Assembly: GCA_026770705.1 (NCBI GenBank)
Contig: JANJGN010000003.1
Location: forward strand, 156,178,001-156,242,000
Reading direction: 5' to 3'
Length of the DNA: 64,000 bases
Origin: Isurus oxyrinchus
Taxonomy: Eukaryota
This document shows, in pieces, positions 2,082-64,000 of the stretch (positions are counted from its first letter, which is position 1; each line of letters opens with the position of its first letter). The position numbers were made by a program, and so were the translations under genes. The notes below the pieces were generated by a model. The model was not told the DNA's origin. It was given only the letters and a program-made list of their open reading frames with translations, and did not search any database.

Positions 2082-2323
2082 AACTAAAACAGAATTACCT
2101 GGAAAAACTCAGCAGGTCTGGCAGCATCGGAGGAGAAGAAAAGAGTTGATGTTTCGAGTCCTCATGACCCTTCAACCAGAACAACAGAAGTTCTGTTAAA
2201 GGGTCATGAGGACTCAAAACGTCAACTCTTTTCTTCTCCACCGATGCTGCCACACCTGCTGAGTTTTTCCAGGTAATTCTGTTTTTGTTTTGGATTTCCA
2301 GCATCCGCAGTTTTTTGTTTTTA
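2082..2323. mobile_element. Penelope-like element 3' end, inserted as an inverted repeat
   Basis: About 100-bp arms in inverted orientation, matching the terminus of the GIY-YIG PLE at 62096. Flanked by a 16-bp TSD: ACTAATTTGCACCATA (2066-2081) / ACTAATTTGCATCATA (2324-2339). Confidence 0.9.
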
Positions 2324-12557: not shown

Positions 12558-13334
12558 AGGTTGTTGCTACCTGTCATCCTGCTGCTCTTTCTCCTGATCT
12601 GGGGACCTGAGGGTGAGTCAAGCAGGATTCCTACATTCACCAATTGAGAACAAGCAAATCCTCACGATAAGAGTTCAGATCGTACACAAACTCATTCTTC
12701 AATTGAATACCGTGGATTTCCACATGCATGTCGCACTGCAGGCCACCTCTAATGGACTAGCACAGTAAGCTGAGAGGAGAAGGGAGCATGAAGAGCAAAA
12801 GGCTCTGATTCGGCAATATCCTAACCAGCTGATGTGACACAAGAATCCCTAATTTGGGCAAGACTAGGCAGGCAACAAATCCATAAATCACTCAACAAGA
12901 AGCAGGCAGGAGGATCCTGAAGCAGTGCTAATTAAAGGGCTATTCAACAAGCTGCAGGTGATTATGTTTCTGAGGAGCCTTTGCTTAGGTAGAGTTGTTG
13001 AAAATACTGGATGGAATCATCCCAGATTTGCACTGTGCAGCAGTGGGCGGGAAAAAGAACCTTATACCTGCCAGCCACTATGGCGGCTCTTCAAGACGGA
13101 TTGTCCCAATCTTGCCTCATTAAGCATGCATTCCCGGGAAACACGCCATTTAGATGGCAGGCGGGCTTTTTTGGACATAGTAAAGGCCTGCCATAATGTC
13201 TTTACCTCCGCTCTGGCCACAGGAGGAACAGCAATCTCACCACTCCTGGCTTGGTAGGCGATGGTGATGTGGTCAGTGCCAATGCTGCACAGAAGAGGTT
13301 GGCCATCCAATGCAGACAGAGGATGAATGATCTC

Positions 13335-14294
13335 AGCAGGTCTGGCAGCATCGGTGGAGAAGAAAAGAGTTGACGTTTCGAGTCCTCATGACCCTTCGAC
13401 AGAACTAGGCGAATCCCAGGAAGGGGTGAAATATAAGCTGGTTTAAGGTGGTTGGTGGGGTTGGGGGGGGTTGGGGGGGGGGGGGAGAGAAGTGGAGGGG
13501 GTGGTGTGGTTGTAGGCAAAAGCAGTGATAGAAACATCATCAAAAGATGTCACAGACAGCAGAACAAAAGAATACATAGGTGTCGAAGTTGGTGATATTA
13601 TCTAAATGAATGTGCTAATTAGGAATGGATGGTAGGGCACTCAAGGTATAGCTCTAGTGGGGGTGTGGGGAGGATAAAAGATTTAAAAATATTTAAAAAT
13701 AATGGAAATAGGTGGGAAAAGAAAAATCTTTATAATTTATTGGAAAAAAACAAAAGGAAGGGGGAAGAAACAGAAAGGGGGTGGGGATGTTTCTTTCTGT
13801 TTCCCCCTTCCTTTTGTTTTTTTCCAATAAATTATAAAGATTTTTCTTTTTCCCACCTATTTCCATTATTTTTAAATATTTTTAAATCTTTTATCCTCCC
13901 CACACCCCCACTAGAGCTATACCTTGAGTGCCCTACCATCCATTCTTAATTAGCACATTCATTTAGATAATATCACCAACTTCGACACCTATGTGTTCTT
14001 TTGTTCTGCTGTCTGTGACATCTTTTGATGATGTTTCTATCACTGCTTTTGCCTACAACCACACCACTCCCTCCACTTCTCCCCCCCGCCCCCCCCCCCC
14101 CCCCACCTCCCCAACCACCTTAAACCAGCTTATATTTCATCCCTTCCTGGGATTCGCCTAGTTCTGTCGAAGGGTCATGAGGACTCAAAACGTTAACTCT
14201 TTTCTTCTCCGCCGATGCTGCCAGACCTGCTGAGTTTTTCCAGGTAATTCTGTTTTTGTTTTGGATTTCCAGCATCCGCAGTTTTTTGTTTTTT
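13335..14294. mobile_element. Penelope-like 3' region inserted as a ~960-bp near-perfect palindrome
   Basis: About 440-bp inverted arms with centre near 13775-13800, closely matching 62096-62540. 13-bp TSD GATGAATGATCTC at 13322-13334 and 14295-14307. Confidence 0.93.
13368..13406 (-). ncRNA. Minimal type I hammerhead-ribozyme-like motif (PLE-associated, variant core)
   Basis: RNA AGUU-CUGUCGA-A-GGGUC-AUGAG-GACUC-GAAA-CG-UC-AACU: stem I AGUU/AACU, 5-bp stem II, GAAA, palindromic ACGU at stem III, GUC cleavage triplet. Confidence 0.7.
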
Positions 14295-15159
14295 GATGAA
14301 TGATCTCATCCATGCAGCCAGGGTAAGGCAACCATCTCATCACTCTAAACCCCCACACTCACAAGGCCATCACACATTCACTGGCATCTCACTCATTGCC
14401 AGCTCAAGGGACATCACCACTCACTCTTTCACACACATACCTTCACATCTCCATCTGGCCTCATCTCCTCAGGAGACTGCCTCCTCAGCCCTCACCATCG
14501 TGAGGCCACTTGCACAGATCAACATGCGCTCCCACATGCACGCTGGCATACCCCTTCTTCCCCAGTACAGCCTTCACCCTGCAGCCTCTTCCTTTGCCTG
14601 AGGCCACTTTGCCCCCTTCCCCAAGGAAGCCCTAACCCTGCAGCTGTTGAAAAGCCACTTTCACCTTACGGCTGGTCTGGTAGGTAGAGACCTGACCTTC
14701 AGCCCCCGTAGAAATGATGTGGTGATGCCTGCGAAGCCTGGCACTAATGACCTTTAGTTCTGCCTGAAGCAAGGTAGGCAAACAAATCTCAAAGTCCTGA
14801 GCAAAGTGCAGCTCGCCAGGTGCATATCACTTATGTACAGTTGTGAAACACGTTGGCATTCTCGGGTGATCCAGTGTGGGGGGGATGATTCCGGTGAGCT
14901 GGGCTTATAATGACATGCAGATGTATTACAATGAAGTTCCTGATGTCTGACGGTGGGAAATGCAGCCCGTCATTGATGGGCAGAGCAGACGATTGCAAAC
15001 TGGTTTCACGACATTGTGAAACTGATTTCTGGCCTTCTCGCCATATTATTCGCTCATGCCACTGAGTATGCCCGCCGCCAACATGTACAGAAAATTCGCC
15101 CACTATTTTTGGTTCTTGAAGGTGATTTTTGCCAAGGAGAGAGAACTACGTGACCCAGG

Positions 15160-22789: not shown

Positions 22790-23105
22790 CTATTAACACA
22801 TTCTGCTAACTGACCTTTATGCCACTATTAGCACCTGCCTTCACCTTTAACACTACCATTACCACTCCCTTTGTCTTGTGTCTATCTTTGTCATTTAATC
22901 TCTCCTAAGCTCCAACCTATCTCTGACCTTCTATTTTGGTCCACCTGCTCTACAGCCTCTCTTCAACAGCATAATACCCATCACACTTCTACCTCTCTTC
23001 AGCTCTGGAGAACAGTCATATGGTCTCGAAATGTTACCTCTGTTTCTATCTCCATTGATGCTGTCAAACCTGTTGAGTTTTTCCAGCATTTCTTGTTTTC
23101 ATAAC
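22790..23105 (+). mobile_element. Older Penelope-like 3' end fragment with decayed hammerhead motif
   Basis: AGCT-CTGGAGA-ACAGTC-ATATG-GTCTC-GAAATGTT-ACCT followed by ctccattgatgctgtcaaacctgttgagtttttccag, homologous to the PLE tail at 14200-14245. Confidence 0.7.
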
Positions 23106-34904: not shown

Positions 34905-36363
34905 TAGCTCAAGTTACAACACTGGCATCTACCTGGCAATGGAAATTGCCCAGGTAAGTCCTGAACACAAAAAGCAGGACAAGTCCAACCTGGCCAATTA
35001 CTGCCCCATCAGCCTACTCTCAATCATCAAGAAAATGATGGAAGGGGTCATCAACAGTGCGATCAAGTGGCACTTGCTTAGCAATAAGCTGCTCACTGAT
35101 GCCCAGTTTGGGTTCTGCCAGGGCCACTCAGCTCCTGACCTCATTGCAACCTTGGTTGAAACATGGACAAAAGAGCTAAACTCCAGAGGTGAGGTGAGAA
35201 TGACTGCCTTCGAGATCAAGGCAGCATTTGACCAAGTGTAGCATCAAGGAGCCCTAGCAAAACTGGAGTCAATGGGGATCAGGGGGAAAACTCTCCGCTG
35301 GTTGGAGTCATACCTAGCACAAAGGAAGATGGTTGTGGTTGTTGGAGGTCAATCAACTCAGTTCCAGGACACCACAGCAGGAGTTCCTCAGGGTAGTGTC
35401 CGAGACCCAACCATCTTCAGCTGCTTCATCAATGGCCTTCCTTCCATCATAAGGTCAGAACTGTGGATGTTCACTGATAATTGCACGATATTCAGCACCA
35501 TTCACAACTCGTCAGAATCTGATGTCCATGTCCAAATGCAGCAAGACCTGGGCAACATCCAGGCTTGGGCTGACAAGTGGCAAATAACATTCACGCCACA
35601 CAAGTGCCAGGCAATGACCATCTCCCACAAGACAGAATCCAACCATTGCCCCTTGATGTTCAATGGCATTAGCATCGCTTAACCCCCCCATTATCAACAT
35701 CCTGGGGGTTACCAGTGGCCAGAAACTGAATTGGACTAGCCATATAAATACTGTGGCTACAAGTGGAGGTCAGAGGTTAGGAATCTTGCGGCTAGTAACT
35801 CACCTCCTGACTCCCCAAAGCCTGAGCACCATCTACAAGGCACAAGGCAGGAGTGTGTTGAAACCCTCTCTTGCCTGGATGAGTGCATCTCCAACAACAC
35901 TCAAGAAGCTTGACACCATCCAGGACAAAGCAGCCTGCTTGATTGGTACCCCACCCACAAACATTCATTCCCTCTACAACCGAAGCACAGTGGCAGCAGT
36001 GTGTACTATCTTCAAGATGCACTGGAGGAACTCACCAAGGCTCCTTAGACAGCACCTTCCACACCCAAGACCACTACCATCTAGAAGGACAAGGGCAGCA
36101 GATACAAGGGAACACCACCACCTGCAAATTCCCCTCCAAGTCACTCAACATCCTGACTTGGAAATATATCGCTGTTCCTTCACTGTCGCTGGGTCAAAAT
36201 CCTGGAACTCCTTCCCTTACAGCACTGTGGGTGTACCTACAACATATAGACTACAGCAGTTTAAGAAGGCAGCTCACCACCACCTTCTCAAGGGCAATTA
36301 GGGGTGGGCAATAAATGCTGGCCTAAGCAGCAACGCCCACATCCCATGAATGAAGTTAAAAAA
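34905..36363 (+). mobile_element. LINE-A copy (RT to 3' end)
   Basis: NYCPISLLSII, QFGFCQGHSAPD, GVPQGSV, MFTDNCT; tail with A-run at 36358. Confidence 0.93.
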
Positions 36364-45619: not shown

Positions 45620-47050
45620 AGTGTAACTCCACCATTTAAAAAAGGAGAGAGGGAAAAAACAGGGATTTAAAGACCAGTTAGCCTTACATCAATGGTAGGG
45701 AAAATGCTAGTCTATTATAAAGGATGTGGTACTTCGAAAATATCAACAGGATTAGACCAAGTCAACATGGATTTATGAAAGGGAAATCATGTTTGACAAA
45801 CCTACTGGAGTTTTCTGAGGACGCAACTAGCAGAATAAATAAGGGAGAACCAGTGGATGTGGTGTATTTGGATTTTCAGGAAGCTTTTGATAAAGTCCCA
45901 CATAAGAGGTTCATGTGCAAAATTAAAGCACATGGGTTTGGGGGTAATATATTGGCATGGATTGAGGATTGGTTAGCAGGCAGGAAATAGAGAGTAGGAA
46001 TCGATGGGTCTTTTTTAGAATGGCAGATGGCGACCAGTGGGGTACCACAGGGATTAGTGCTTGGGCCCCAGCTATTCACAATATATATCAATGATTTGGG
46101 TGAGGGAACCAAATGTAATATTTCCAAGTTTGCTGATGACACAAACTAGGTGGGAATGTGAGCGGTGGGGAGGGTATTACGACAATTTAGACAGGTTGAG
46201 TGAGTGGACAAATACATGGCAGGTGCAGTGTAACATAGATAAGTGCAAAGTTATCCACTTTGGTAGGAAAAACAGAATTGCAGAGTATTATTTAAATGGT
46301 GATAGATTGGAAAATGTTGATCTACAAAGGGACCTGGATGTCCTTGTACACCAATCACTGAAAGCAAACATGCAGGTGCAGCAAGCGGTTAAGAAGGCAA
46401 ATGGTATGTTAGCCTTCATTGCAAGAGGACTTGAGTACAGGAGCAAGAATGTCTTACTGCAGCTGTACAGGGCCTTGGTGAGAACACACCTGGAGTATTG
46501 TGTGCAGTTTTGGTCTCCTTACCTGAAAAAAGATATACTTGCCGGAGAGGGAGTGCAGTGAAGGTTCAGCAGACTGACTCCTGGGATGGCTGGATTGTCA
46601 TATGAGGAGAGATTGGGCCAACTAGGCCTGTATTCACTGGAGTTTAGAAGAATGAGAGGGGATCTCATTGAAACAAATAAAATTCTGACAGGGCTGGACA
46701 GACTGGATGCAGGGGTGATGTTTCCTCTGGCTGGGGGTCTAGGTCAAGGGGTCACAATCTCAGGATACGGGTTGGGCCATTTAGGACTGAGATAAAAAGA
46801 AACTTCTTCACTCAGAGAATGGTGAACCTGTAGAATTCTATACCACAGAAGGCTGTGGAGGTCAAGTCACTGAATATAGTTAAGAAGGAAATAGATAGAT
46901 TTCTAGACTCTAAAGGCATCTAGGGGTATGGGGAGAGAGTGGGAGATGGCATTGAGACAGAGGATCAGCCATGATCATATTGAATGGCGGAGCAGGCACA
47001 AAGGACTGAATGACCTACTCCTGCTTCTATTTTTCTATGTTTCTATATTT
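45620..47050 (+). mobile_element. CR1 LINE (RT to 3' tail) inserted into the Harbinger element
   Basis: [70 protein letters not shown]; tail gactgaatgacctactcctgcttctat. Confidence 0.95.
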
Positions 47051-47464: not shown

Positions 47465-48659
47465 ATGGAGTCTGGTGAACTAGCTATATGCCTCGTGGTG
47501 TACAGAGCGCGAAGATGATGGAGAAGAGAGTGACGGAGGCTCCTGGCTGCACAGAAGGAGCAGCACCCTCTGGAAGAAGCTGAGGCTGTGGCTCCTGCAC
47601 ACGTCACCGAAGAGTCACAGTGAGCCGTCACTGGTCAGCACCTAGCTAGACCCATGGTCATAGGTGCCTTTCAATCCTGCAGATGACCGAGAACCGGTGT
47701 TGCCAAAGAATGCAATGTCTAGGGAACTGGTCAGTCACAGGTGCCAGCTACTGGAGGATTTGGCGCCACGGGGACATTCAGGGCATCCATTGCCAGTGGC
47801 CGTGGAAGTGACTGTGGCGCTCAATTTTTACGCCAGTGGTTCCTTTCAGGGCTCCAGAGGTGATCTCTGTGGGATATCACAAGCCTCCAACCACAAATGC
47901 ATCCATGAGGTTATGAATGTCACCTTCACGAAGGCACACAATTTTGAGCATTTCGCCCGGGACCAGGGCAGCCAGGCTGCAAGAACAATTAGATTTGCCC
48001 TGATGTCGGATTTCCCACAGGTGCAGGGTGTGCCATCGACTGCAATCACATGGCGCTCAGATCTCTGTTGCAACAAGTGGTCAACTATGTCAACCATAAG
48101 GGTTTCCATTCAGCTGATGTGCGACCACCACAAATGCATCCAATATTTGCCCACGGTTTCCAGGGAATGTCCACGACTCTACATTCTCAGTCGGTCACAG
48201 ATCCCTGCAGTCTTCCAATGTCCACAGAGGCTGCAGTGATGGCTCCTCAGGGACAAGGGTAGCGGATGTGGCTGATGACACCCATGTGGTAGCCTCAGCA
48301 GAGTAAAGGTATAATGGGGTTCATTCTGCAACTCGCAACTTGGTGGAGCAAACCTTCGGGATGTTGAAATTGAGGTTCTGGTGCCTGGACTGGTCTGGCG
48401 GAGCCCTGCAATACAGTCTGCAGAGGGTGTCATGCATCGTCGTCGTCTGCTGTGCCCTTTACAACCTGGCACTGCAATGGGGAGAGGAGCTGGCTGAGGA
48501 GGAGATGAAGGAGCTGGAGGTCTCCTCCGATGAGGAGGACGTTGACAGGGATGAGGGTGAGGAGGTCCTCGAAGGCAACGATGATGACAATGAGGCTCTC
48601 GCACTCATGATGCCCTCATAGCTGTTGGATTTGTGGAGGATGATGGTGGCATGCAGTGA
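47465..48659 (+). pseudogene. Harbinger HARBI1-like DDE transposase, frameshifted
   Basis: GHPLPVAVEVTVALNFYASGSFQ..GDLCGISQ, FPQVQG/AIDCNH, NHKGFHS, FPGNVHDSYIL, WLLRDKG, VEQTFGMLKLRFWCLDWSGGALQY..VVCCALYNLA, acidic tail. Confidence 0.92.
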
Positions 48660-55678: not shown

Positions 55679-58600
55679 GTGATGGCCTAGTGCTCTTGAT
55701 GCTGGACTAGTAATCCAGAGATGCAGGATAATGCTCTGGGGAATTAAAAGTCTAATGTTGATCATGAAACCATTGCTGATTGTCATAAAAATCCATCTGG
55801 TTCACTAATGCCCTTTAGGGAAGGAAATCTGCCGTCTGGCCTATATGTGACCCCAGACCCACAGCAATGTGGTTGACTCTGAAATGGCCTAGCAAGCCAT
55901 TTTTATTTGTCAGTTGTAACAAACTGCTACAAAGTCACAAAAAAGGAATGAAACCAGATGAACCACCTGGCATCAACCTCGGCACAGGGAACGACAACGG
56001 CAATCTCAGTTCTGTCGACTCTGCAAAGTCCTGCTTACTAACGTCCGGGCACTAGTGCCAAAGTTGGGAGAGCTGTCTCACAGACTCCCCACAGAATCAT
56101 ATCTTATAGATAATGTCCCACACACCACCATCACCATCCCTGCTGGTGGGGCAGGACATACCCAGCAGAGGTGGAGGCACAGTGGTATACAGTCGGGAGG
56201 GAGTTGCCCTGGGAGTCCTCAACATTGAGTCCAGACCTCACGAAGCCTCCCTCAGTCCAGGGTGGCAAAGGCGCAGAATGTACTCCGGATGGGGACTTCA
56301 ACGTCCATCACCAAGAGTGGCTCGGTAGCACCACCACTGGCCAAGTCCTAAAGGACATAGCTGCTAGACTTGGTCTGCGGCAGGTGGTGAGGGAAAAACA
56401 TACTTGACCTCATCCTCACCAACCTGCCTGCCTCAGATACATCTGTCCATGATAATATTGGTAGGAGTGACCACCGCACAATTGTTGTGGCGATGAAGTT
56501 CCACCTTCACATTGAGAATACCCTCCATTGTGTTGTGTGGCACTACCATAGTGCTAAATGGGATGGATTTCGAACAGATCAAGCAACTCAAGTCTGGACA
56601 TCCATGAGGCACTGTGGGCCATCAACAGGAGCAGAATTGTACTCAAACACAATCTGTAACCTCATGGCCCAGCATATCCCCCACCATACCATTACTTTCA
56701 AGCCAGGGGATCAACCCCGGTTCAATGAAGAGTGCAGGAGGGCACCAGGAGGAGCAGCACCAGGTATACCTAAAAATGAGGTGTCAACCTGGTGAAGCTA
56801 TAAAACAGGACTACTTGCATGCCAAACAGCATAAGCAGAAAGTGATAGACAGGGCTAAGCGATCCCACAACCTATGGATCAGAACTAAACTCTGCAGTCC
56901 TTCCACATCCACTCGTGAATGGTGGTTAAACAAATAAACAACTCACTGGAGGAGGAAACTCCACAAATATCCCCATCCTCAATGATGGAGGAGCCCAGCA
57001 CATCACTGCAAAGGGTAAGGCTGAAGCATTTGCTACAATCTTCAGTCAGAGGAGCTGAGTGGATGATCCCTATCTGCCTCCTTTGGCACCACAGATGCCA
57101 GTCTTCAGCCAATTTAATTCATTCTACATGATATCAAGAAATGGCTGAAGGCACTGGATAGTGCAAAGGCTATGGGCCCTGACAATATTTTGGCAATAGC
57201 ACTGAAGGCTTGTGCTCCAGAAGTTGCCACACCCCTAGTCAAGCTGTACCAGCACAGCTGCAACACTGACATCTACCCAGCTATGTGGAAAATTGCCCAA
57301 GTATGTCTTGTACACAAAAAGCAGGACAATACAACCCGGCCAATTACTGCCCCATCAGTCTACTCACGATCATCAGTAAAGTAATGGAAGGGTCTTCAAC
57401 AGTGCTATCGAGCGGCACTTGCTTAACAATAACCTGCTCACTGACACTCCTGACCTCATTACAGCCTTGCTTTAAACATGGACAAAAGAGCGGAACTCTC
57501 AAGGTGAGGTAAGAGTGACTGCCCTTAACATCAAGGCTGCATTTACCTGAGTGTGGCATCAAGGAGCCCCAGCAAAACTGGAGCAATGGCAATCGGGGTG
57601 GGGGGTGGGGGGGAACTATCTGCTGATTGGAGTCATACCTAGCACAAAGGAAGATGGTTGTGGTTGTTGGAGGTCAGCCATCTCAGCTCCTGGACATCAC
57701 TGCAAGAGTTCATCAGGGTAGTGTCCTCGGCCCAAACATCTTCAGCTGCTTTATCAATGACCTTGACCTTCCTTCCATCATAAGGTCAGAAGTGGAGATG
57801 TTCGCTGATGATTGCACAATGTTCAGCACCATTCACGACTCCTCAGACACTGAAGCAGTCCATGTCCAAATGCAGCAAGACCTGGACAACGTCCAGGCTT
57901 GGGCTGACAAGTGGCAAGTAACATTCACGCCCCACAAGTGCCAGACAATGATTATCTCCAACAAGAGAGAATCTAACCATCGCTCCTTGAAATTCAATAG
58001 CAAACCTATCACTGAATCCTCCACTATCAACATCCTGGGGGTTACCATTGACCAGAAACTGAATTGGACTAGCCATTTAAATACTGTGGTTACAAGAGCA
58101 GGTTAGAGGCTTGGAATCCTGTGATGAGTAACTCACCTCCTTACCCCCCAAAGCTTGTCCACCATCTACAAGGCATAAGTTAGGAGTGTGATAAACTATT
58201 CCCCGGTTGCCTGGATGAATGCAGTTCCCACAACACTGAAAAAGCTTGACACCGTCCAGGACAAAGCAGCCCACTTGATAGGCACCGTATCCACAAACGT
58301 TCACTCTGTCCACCACCGATGCACAGTAGCAGCAGTGTGTACCATCTACAAGGTGCATTACAGGAATCCAACAAGACTCCTTAGACAGCACCTTCCAAAC
58401 GCACTACCACTACCATCTAGAAGGACAAGGGCAGCAAATTGATGGAAACACCACCACCTGGAAGTTCCCCTCCAAGTCACTCAGCATCCTAACTTGAAAA
58501 TATGTTAATGTTCCTTCACTGTCGCTGGGTCAAATTCCTGGAACTCCCTCGCTAGCAGCACTGTGGGTGTACCTACACCACATGGGCTGCAGCGGATCAA

Positions 58601-62095: not shown

Positions 62096-63550
62096 AGGTC
62101 TGGCAGCATCGGCGGAGAAGAAAAGAGTTGACGTTTCGCGTCCTCATGACCCTTCTACAGAACTTGAGTTCGAGTCCAAGAAAGAATTGAAATATAAGCT
62201 GGTTTAAGGTGTGTGGGGGGGCCGGAGAGAGGGAGAGAGAGAGAAGTGGTGGGGGTGTGTGGTTGTAGGGACAAACAAGCAGTGATAGAAGCAGATCATC
62301 AAAAGATGTCAACAACAATAGAACAAAAGAACACATAGGTGTTAAAGTTGGTGATATTATCTAAACGAATGTGCTAATTAAGAATGGATGGTAGGGCACT
62401 CAAGGTATAGCTCTAGTGGGGGTGGGGAGAGCATAAAAGATTTTAAGATATTTAAAAATAATGGAAATAGGTGGGAAAAGAAAAATCTATATAATTTATT
62501 GGGAAAAAAAGGAAGGGGGAAACAGAAAGGGGGTGGGGATGGGGGAGGGAGCTCACGACCTAAAGTTGTTGAATTCAATATTCAGTCCGGAAGGCTGTAA
62601 AGTGCCTAGTCGGAAGATGAGGTGTTGTTCCTCCAGTTTGCGTTGGGCTTCACTGGAACAATGCAGCAAGCCAAGGACAGACATGTGGGCAAGAGAGCAG
62701 GGTGGAGTGTTAAAATGGCAAGCGACAGGGAGGTTTCAGTCATTCTTGCGGACAGACCGCAGGTGTTCTGCAAAGTGGTCACCAGTTTACGTTTGGTCTC
62801 TCCAATGTCGAGGAGACCACATTGGAAGCAACGAATGCAGTAGACTAAGTTGGGGGAAATGCAAGTGAAATGCTGCTTCACTTGAAAGGAGTGTTTGGCC
62901 CCTTGGACGGTGAGGAGAGAGGAAGTGAAGGGGCAGGTGTTGCATCTTTTGCGTGGGCATGGGGTGGTGCCATAGGAGGGGATTGAGGAGTAGGGGGTGA
63001 TGGAGGAGTGGACCAGGGTGTCCCAGAGGGAGTGATTCCTACGGAATGCCGATAGGGGGAGTGAAGGGAAGATGTGTTTGGTGGTGGCATCATGCTGGAG
63101 TTGGCGGAAATGGCGGAGGATGATCCTTTGAATGCGGAGGCTGGTGGGGTGATAAGTGAGGACAAGAGGGACCTTATCATGTTTCTGGGAGGGAGGAGAA
63201 GGCGTGAGGGCGGATGTGCGGGAGATGGGCCGGACACGGTTGAGGGCCCTGTCAATGACCGTGGGTGGAAAACCTCGGTTAAGGAAGAAGGAGGACATGT
63301 CTACGGAACTGTTTTTGAAGGTGGCATCATCGGAACAGATGCGACGGAAGCGAAGGAACTGAGAGAATGGGATGGAGTCCTTACAGGAAGCGGGGTGTGA
63401 GGAGCTGTAGTCGAGGTAGCTGTGGGAGTCGGTGGGTTTGTAATGGATATTGGTGGACAGTCTATCACCAGAGATTGAGACAGAGAGGTCAAGGAAGGGA
63501 AGGGAAGTGTCAGAGATGGACCACGTGAAAATGATGGAGGGGTGGAGATT
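62096..63550 (-). mobile_element. Penelope-like element (Neptune-like): RT C-terminus, Cys linker, GIY-YIG endonuclease and 3' repeat
   Basis: LPFLDLSVSISGDRLSTNIHYKPTDSHSYLDYSSSHP..IPFSQFLRFRRICSD, PCPRKRCNTC, FTCISPNLVYCIRCFQCGLLDIGETKR (YIG reads DIG, then a frameshift). Confidence 0.93.
62126..62164 (-). ncRNA. Minimal hammerhead-like motif in the PLE 3' repeat
   Basis: AGUU-CUGUAGA-A-GGGUC-AUGAG-GACGC-GAAA-CG-UC-AACU. Confidence 0.65.
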
Positions 63551-64000
63551 AAAACCCGCTTTCACAGCCATATCTCCTTTCTCAGTGACTGTCTCCGTCT
63601 CCGACTTACCCCACGTGGATTTCAACTGAAATTCCACCCCTCATGTTTCGAACCCACCCAGGATTACAGGTATCTCTGGGACATAAAACGTTTCTCGGAC
63701 TGCTGTTCCCGTCACATTCTGAAATCCACACTCAGTGCCATGCGCCGCCATATGAACACACTCGACCTCTCGTTCCAGCAGCACCGCCGTACCCTTTTGC
63801 AAAGCTGCACGTGCCCCCAGTTTCATTTTATTCTTCCGCTCATCCGACACCTCAACGAGAAACTTTTTCTCTTTCTCTCAAGTGCTAAGGAACGCAAGCT
63901 CCAACAACTCATCGACACCAACACCCATCTAAGACCCTCCACCCCTGCCTGTCCCTCCGTCCCCACCCCATCTTCCAAACCCAACCCCAGCCGTGTATTC
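63548..64000 (+). mobile_element. N-terminal part of a Penelope-like ORF, open to the window edge
   Basis: Stop-free frame IKTRFHSHISFLSDCLRLRLTPRGFQLKF...KERKLQQL...PNPSRVF with a PLE-like FL..C....L.P.GF motif; joined divergently to the inverted copy. Confidence 0.75.

Follow-up and report, generated by a model that had tools for sequence, protein, structure and literature searches.

Does a hammerhead ribozyme that lacks the nearly invariant A at position 6 of its core still cut, and does the retroelement that carries it need the cut? The question is raised by a 64,000-nucleotide stretch of DNA from Isurus oxyrinchus, called the window below, in which five copies of a hammerhead motif of a Penelope-like element (PLE) have U at this position. 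The role of hammerheads in PLEs is debated, RNA processing being set against a mere passenger state (PMC8557442). That role is put to a natural test by a family which has reached a very high copy number with one of the nearly invariant core bases replaced. If the U6 core cleaves, it is one more natural exception to the hammerhead core consensus, and large vertebrate families go unseen in descriptor searches. A U6 core without cleavage would support the in vitro result that PLE insertion is independent of cleavage.

The hammerhead motifs

An earlier note on this DNA had described five type I hammerheads, none of them with A6. All five are present in the window, each 39 nt long and with the core, the G or A at position 12 and the cleavage triplet that had been reported, and U6 is found in every one. 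The best-preserved copy lies at 13368-13406 on the minus strand, with U6 at 13399 and a predicted cut after 13372. It is the sole intact copy apart from U6, every canonical core letter being present except at position 6, and the other four differ from it at 2, 2, 3 and 7 sites. The plus-strand copy at 14160-14198 (U6 at 14167, predicted cut after 14194) has an A12, put down to CpG decay, and a GUU triplet. The minus-strand copy at 62126-62164 (U6 at 62157) has a G-G mismatch in stem II. The remaining two are decayed: the copy at 2144-2182 (minus strand) has an inserted G in the core, and the copy at 2189-2227 (plus strand) reads U6, U7, A8 and A12. The palindromic ACGU that was attributed to the motif is found in four of the five copies, since the 2144 copy has lost the palindrome and reads ACAU.

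All five copies thus depart from the canonical core C3-U4-G5-A6-N7-G8-A9 / G12-A13-A14-A15.1 at position 6. The features of a PLE minimal hammerhead, i.e. stems I and II, G10.1-C11.1, a base after A9, palindromic 15.2-16.2 and an NUH triplet, are intact in one of the five and are the majority states across the contigs described below. The location also fits, as the motif lies in the pLTR, about 390 nt beyond the ORF stop of the 62126 copy's element. The identification as the minimal type I hammerhead of a PLE pLTR is therefore borne out. Another core register in which A6 would be restored was rejected by eye, because the shift breaks C3-G8.

A degenerate pattern matched three of the five copies and gave no match in 100 shuffles. 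With a structure descriptor in which position 6 was left free, four of the five copies and a weak site at 63249 were found in the 64-kb window, every one with U6; no A6 motif was found there with this descriptor. On 12 shuffles it gave 0-2 matches each, none of them strong. None of the 19 Rfam matches of the window at E<=5 is a hammerhead, which counts only as far as the Rfam models recognise minimal PLE motifs with A6.

Insertions and element anatomy

The five copies represent three insertions of one PLE, namely two inverted pairs with target-site duplications and one element 3' end. The insertion at 2081-2322 consists of two inverted hammerhead-plus-tail arms and is flanked by a 16-bp duplication with one mismatch (2066-2081 / 2324-2339). 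Both arms begin at the 5' edge of stem I (window 2183-2189), and four of the 12 listed inserted-letter joints also go to the corresponding edge at 14160; truncation may prefer this place. The insertion at 13332-14293 consists of two inverted pLTR arms that are 94% alike and joined near 13790, with an exact 14-bp duplication (13322-13335 / 14295-14308). MicroRNA-like Rfam matches at 13697-13875, below the gathering score, correspond to the fold-back junction of this pLTR pair.

The element 3' end at 62096-63562 carries a broken ORF and a pLTR. The ORF (62553-63562, minus strand) is the C-terminal part of a PLE RT/GIY-YIG ORF, 5'-truncated and broken by a frameshift near 62780 and an internal stop. 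The full ORF or its start was not found in the window. The part at 62771-63562 (264 aa) gave 111 protein matches, many with RVT_1 and some with GIY-YIG. Its best named relatives are shark proteins with 57-63% identity, and the top match, P0001, scores both GIY-YIG and RVT_1. The fragment by itself has no Pfam match, and the ORF of EN+ PLEs, an RT with a C-terminal GIY-YIG, is recognised here through these relatives. A pLTR after the ORF, inverted 5'-truncated copies and an optional 30-40 nt tail were all found; inverted truncated copies and such a tail are standard PLE features (PMC8557442). The 62k pLTR is about 8% diverged from the 13k type, and its linker is different.

Other retroelement fragments lie at 35657-36301, 46058-46561 and 57627-58106. 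The 57627 frame scores as a reverse transcriptase, and the 35657 and 46058 frames are without a Pfam match. An open frame at 47664-48239, also without a Pfam match, resembles by eye what we take to be a fragment of a Harbinger-type transposase.

Position 6 across the family

Of 24 runs available, four (X1, X2, X19 and X23) were aligned on 14108-14300 at 80% likeness and with a 2% threshold for variants. From X1 82,595 contigs were aligned and from X2 82,586; the organism labels of these two runs differ. It should be noted that the depth figures are depth-weighted contigs and not reads, that X2 is partly uncounted, and that X1 possibly has the same source as the window. The variant rows number 53, of which 40 are listed, and the tallies by kind span all rows. 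In each of X1 and X2 the sole place with T>A is 14140 and the sole place with T>G is 14201, so position 6 (14167) has no A or G at 2%. T>C occurs at four places in X1 and five in X2 outside the listed rows, and C may be present at position 6. U6 thus looks family-wide as far as these contigs go.

At position 7, T accounts for 33/30% and G for 4/4% of the depth (X1/X2). Other CpG sites are 7-13% decayed; the variation at position 7 exceeds this, which suggests a division into subfamilies at the one free position of the hammerhead. G12 makes up 80.5/78.6% and C17 96.1/93.5% of the depth. The AAAA and GUU variants of the earlier note are thus seen as described, but they are minority states in both runs. 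No A>N place of X1 falls within the core, and A9, A13, A14, A15.1 and the extra A are accordingly fixed at 2%. X1 and X2 have almost identical variant spectra. X19, a small-share run and hence weak, has one contig across the motif, of depth 3.1, with no change listed at 14167; in X23 two reads aligned, neither of them over the motif.

Contigs of sister families mostly end before the core, with loose ends before 14206, and the position-6 figure is for that reason restricted to one family. Downstream of the motif the depth rises to about nine times the core value, and sister families are probably more abundant. A summed core depth of 4.1M in X1, set over single records of 11-47, suggests a copy number in the region of 10^5 for the family, which is a rough guide, as depth is not a copy count.

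The non-canonical core that had been claimed for the whole family also included an extra A and a one-pair stem III. U6 stands, with A and G below 2% of the depth in both runs. The other two are ordinary, because the published consensus of PLE minimal hammerheads contains both, with an extra base between 9 and 10.1, G10.1-C11.1 and palindromic 15.2-16.2 (PMC4209133).

Contigs and window copies also define the 3' end of the element. The sequence beyond the cut site (14195-14293, plus strand) has two 3' ends, at about 14262 and about 14293, separated by a 31-nt optional tail. Loose contig ends and the ends of window copies cluster at 14262 and 14293/4, which places them 68 and 99 nt downstream of the predicted cut, and by analogy with the anole PLE they are likely RT start sites. 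The insertion copies run unbroken through the predicted cut site and up to 68 or 99 nt beyond, and in X1 the depth has no step there (9.1M at 14194, 7.9M at 14197). Such uncut passage is not specific to U6, since genomic copies of any PLE show it.

Shark relatives and sister families

In sense translation, 26 of 28 residues of motif and tail agree with white-shark COMMD9 models, and a basking-shark model matches in part. On these matches we take the host to be a lamniform shark. Motif and tail (14162-14245) form part of the coding sequence of the models: in three COMMD9 isoforms of the white shark they lie between the Pfam domains, of which there are two, and a basking-shark AMBP-like model also contains them (P0112, P0116, P0117 and P0113). 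A likely 5' splice donor is found at 14242-14249 (plus strand), 49 nt past the cut site, and in P0112 and P0113 the element-derived peptide stops there. This suggests exonisation or a donor of the element's own intron.

A Ser codon in white-shark P0112 is compatible with U6-C7-G8. P0113 is uninformative on position 6, because its match begins at stem II. In zebra-shark P0003 a PLE ORF continues into L-M-K-G...P-K-R-Q, and the Met codon fixes A6-U7-G8. The antisense translation of white-shark P0114 gave a gapless alignment to the motif (27 of 42), in which a Thr codon, read in a checked frame, fixes U6 and G5. In this copy C3, G5, G8, A9, G12, A13 and A15.1 are kept; loop II is changed and it has A10.2-U11.2 and U17, which is why we assign it to a sister family. 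A degenerate sister-family copy in the window itself (23001-23100, plus strand) has G6, A7, A10.2-U11.2 and several mismatches. The codons of these relatives make A6 the likely ancestral state, and U6 may reach beyond one family, as the single copy in P0114 hints.

An antisense peptide search of a word-indexed database found none of 22 candidates. Motif scans gave no match in viral contigs and one match each, by chance, in metagenomes and in prokaryote genomes.

Age of the family

The family had been called recently mobile, and the data do not support this. CpG decay stands at 7-13%, the two arms of the 13k insertion have diverged at 7 of 395 sites, and protein models from two shark genera contain the tail. 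At the epaulette-shark mutation rate of 7e-10 per base per generation (PMC10587355) the arm divergence would correspond to about 13 million generations, a value that is surely too high because of CpG decay, copying errors and rate differences. The family is of low divergence, and young in relative terms only; the arm divergence suggests no recent movement.

Constraint and folding

Comparison of the 13k and 62k pLTR types gave 2 differences in the 39 sites of the motif, 10 in the 46 of the adjacent linker (P=0.033 against the motif, one of two comparisons) and 21 in the 269 of the upstream pLTR (P=0.75). Both types carry U6. Among five close sequences, the insertion-bearing copy being excluded, none of the nine stem pairs is changed on both sides and one is changed from G-U to A-U. 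Evidence of selection on the hammerhead fold is weak, though not absent.

In folding of the isolated motif, stem II forms with P 0.90-0.97 in three copies and 0.51 in the mismatched copy. U6 pairs astray with A15.1 (P 0.12-0.82). With A6 on a C7 background a 5-pair misfold is predicted instead, and the open fold drops from 0.034 to 0.000. When 20-30 nt of natural downstream sequence are included, the predicted hammerhead fold is nearly gone, but natural flanks suppress it no more than shuffled flanks do. The upstream linker was considered as an off-switch for the hammerhead and rejected, as 34-82% of shuffles were equally low, and so was the downstream pyrimidine tract as a specific off-switch (94% of shuffles equally low or lower). 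The tail hairpin reaches a z of only -1.85. The double-hammerhead fold has -10.1 against -18.2 kcal/mol for the dimer minimum; this is given no weight, because nearest-neighbour energies ignore the tertiary core.

Interpretation of the U6 core

The earlier note had left open whether U6 is a tolerated variant or a sign of an attenuated ribozyme kept as a structural signal for the RT. By analogy, published work on position 6 favours attenuation. The natural A6C hammerhead cleaves at <0.1/min (PMC3088659). In 0.3 mM Mg2+ a mouse-gut ribozyme cleaves at 0.3/min with A6 and at 3.55e-6/min with A6C, and in Mn2+ the A6C form keeps 0.18/min (PMC7151607). In a full mutational scan CUGA-turn mutants were of low activity, the C3G/G8C swap being the sole exception in the text available (PMC9901934). 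The hammerhead of the anole PLE cuts only with protein, and its mutants insert normally, the main template being uncut RNA; the available text reports no RNA ends at the cut, and RNA trimmed to +20, without C3 and G8, still inserts (PMC11167929). The last observation weakens the idea of a structural signal for the RT. Naiad PLEs multiply although they lack canonical hammerheads (PMC8557442).

Our preferred reading, with a probability of about 0.55, is that the motif is a weakened PLE minimal hammerhead, carried by a successful family and rarely cutting. In brief, the source elements of a lamniform-shark PLE with an ancestral A6 would have gained A6U and likely kept it throughout their spread. 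U6 would lower the cleavage rate in Mg2+, and residual cutting, if any, would need a dimer formed through ACGU and probably the element's protein, while a weak constraint on the fold would persist. The RT would start 68 or 99 nt downstream and copy through the uncut site. Since reverse transcription likely begins downstream on uncut RNA, the family could have multiplied despite rare cutting with little lost, and the findings suggest that the element spreads without needing the cut. They comprise the hammerhead anatomy, U6 in five of five copies, A or G at position 6 in less than 2% of the depth, and copies that are unbroken across the cut site. A search for a cleavage assay of A6U found none; the rates are borrowed from A6C and from ribozymes with tertiary contacts, and would hold for U6 by analogy.

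The rest of the core being fixed while N7 varies, and the core kept along with U6 in the sister copy P0114, would fit a working ribozyme equally well. U6 could then be a selected variant that tunes the rate or avoids a misfold, with useful dimer cleavage in the presence of the PLE protein or of a cation such as Mn2+. Among the listed rows core variation is seen only at the free position 7, P0114 implies U6 with a changed loop II around kept core letters, and A6 on the C7 background misfolds in silico; moreover, the natural A6C hammerhead cleaves well in Mn2+ (PMC7151607) and that of the anole is protein-assisted (PMC11167929). Against these points, no stem pair has changed on both sides, the motif is conserved no better than the upstream pLTR, U6 itself pairs astray with A15.1, and an Acropora motif with A6 has the same misfold potential (PMC4209133). 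The support from sister families comes from a single back-translated copy, and the sister copy in the window itself has G6. We consider such a selected variant possible but doubtful. More tentative still is the wider proposal of an old, selected U6 core common to several lamniform-shark Penelope families, with cleavage confined to a dimer that is assisted by protein or favoured by Mn2+; every CUGANGA descriptor would then miss hundreds of thousands of motifs.

The motif might also be catalytically dead and persist by descent or through overlap with another signal, such as protein binding, a promoter or splice sites. The near loss of the predicted fold with natural downstream sequence, the likely splice donor 49 nt downstream and a conservation like that of the rest of the pLTR agree with this. 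The motif is nevertheless better kept than the adjacent 46-nt linker, the sister copy P0114 keeps the core, and downstream competition with the fold is no stronger than in shuffles; as for a signal to the RT, that of the anole element dispenses with the 5' half of the hammerhead (PMC11167929). We regard a dead motif as unlikely, and less probable than either form of the selected variant. A rival in which the family consensus is A6, and U6 reflects local decay or chance in a few copies, draws on the five copies amounting to three insertions only and on the damage that four of them otherwise carry. This is already largely refuted and very improbable, given that A at 14167 is below 2% of the depth in two runs, that the Ser codon of P0112 fits U6-C7-G8, and that the single X19 contig spanning the motif has no listed change at 14167.

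Comparison with known systems

No description of an A6U or U6 hammerhead core, or of a shark PLE hammerhead, was found among the literature records listed; the alignments of Lunse et al. and repeat databases may hold the variant. The available parts of PMC6155905, PMC7229834, PMC6765202 and a 2026 retrozyme preprint contain no U6 core. The closest match is the minimal hammerhead of metazoan PLEs (Cervera and De la Pena 2014, PMC4209133), with which the shark motif shares type I topology, a 4-bp stem I, a 5-bp stem II starting from G10.1-C11.1, a nucleotide after A9, loopless palindromic 15.2-16.2, the NUH triplet, the location in a pLTR and the close inverted pairs. By our reading, the published alignment has the extra base in 54 of 56 motifs and A6 in 56 of 56, the latter count being biased because the descriptor fixed the core boxes. 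Its published core variant is U3-A8, and cartilaginous fish are absent from the part of it that was available. Only U6 departs from this consensus; on the sequences compared, the U6 core is what is new, the remaining features of the motif being already known for PLE minimal hammerheads.

The Poseidon element of Anolis carolinensis (PAc; Frangieh et al. 2024, PMC11167929) resembles the shark element in having a hammerhead followed by two 3' ends and a 30-40 nt tail, and in copies made from uncut RNA. PAc is active and assayed, and its ORF runs from stem II, whereas the shark element is known from sequence and its ORF copy is broken. In non-LTR retrozymes, monomers that each contain a type I hammerhead are arrayed head to tail in tandem, unlike the copies in the window, which are inverted pairs or an ORF-linked end. 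A natural pyrimidine at position 6 is shared with the A6C hammerhead of phage Bcep176 (Perreault et al. 2011, PMC3088659; Naghdi et al. 2020, PMC7151607), which cleaves weakly in Mg2+ and better in Mn2+. There the base is C and not U, and it occurs at a single phage locus, whereas the shark variant is carried by a high-copy retrotransposon family.
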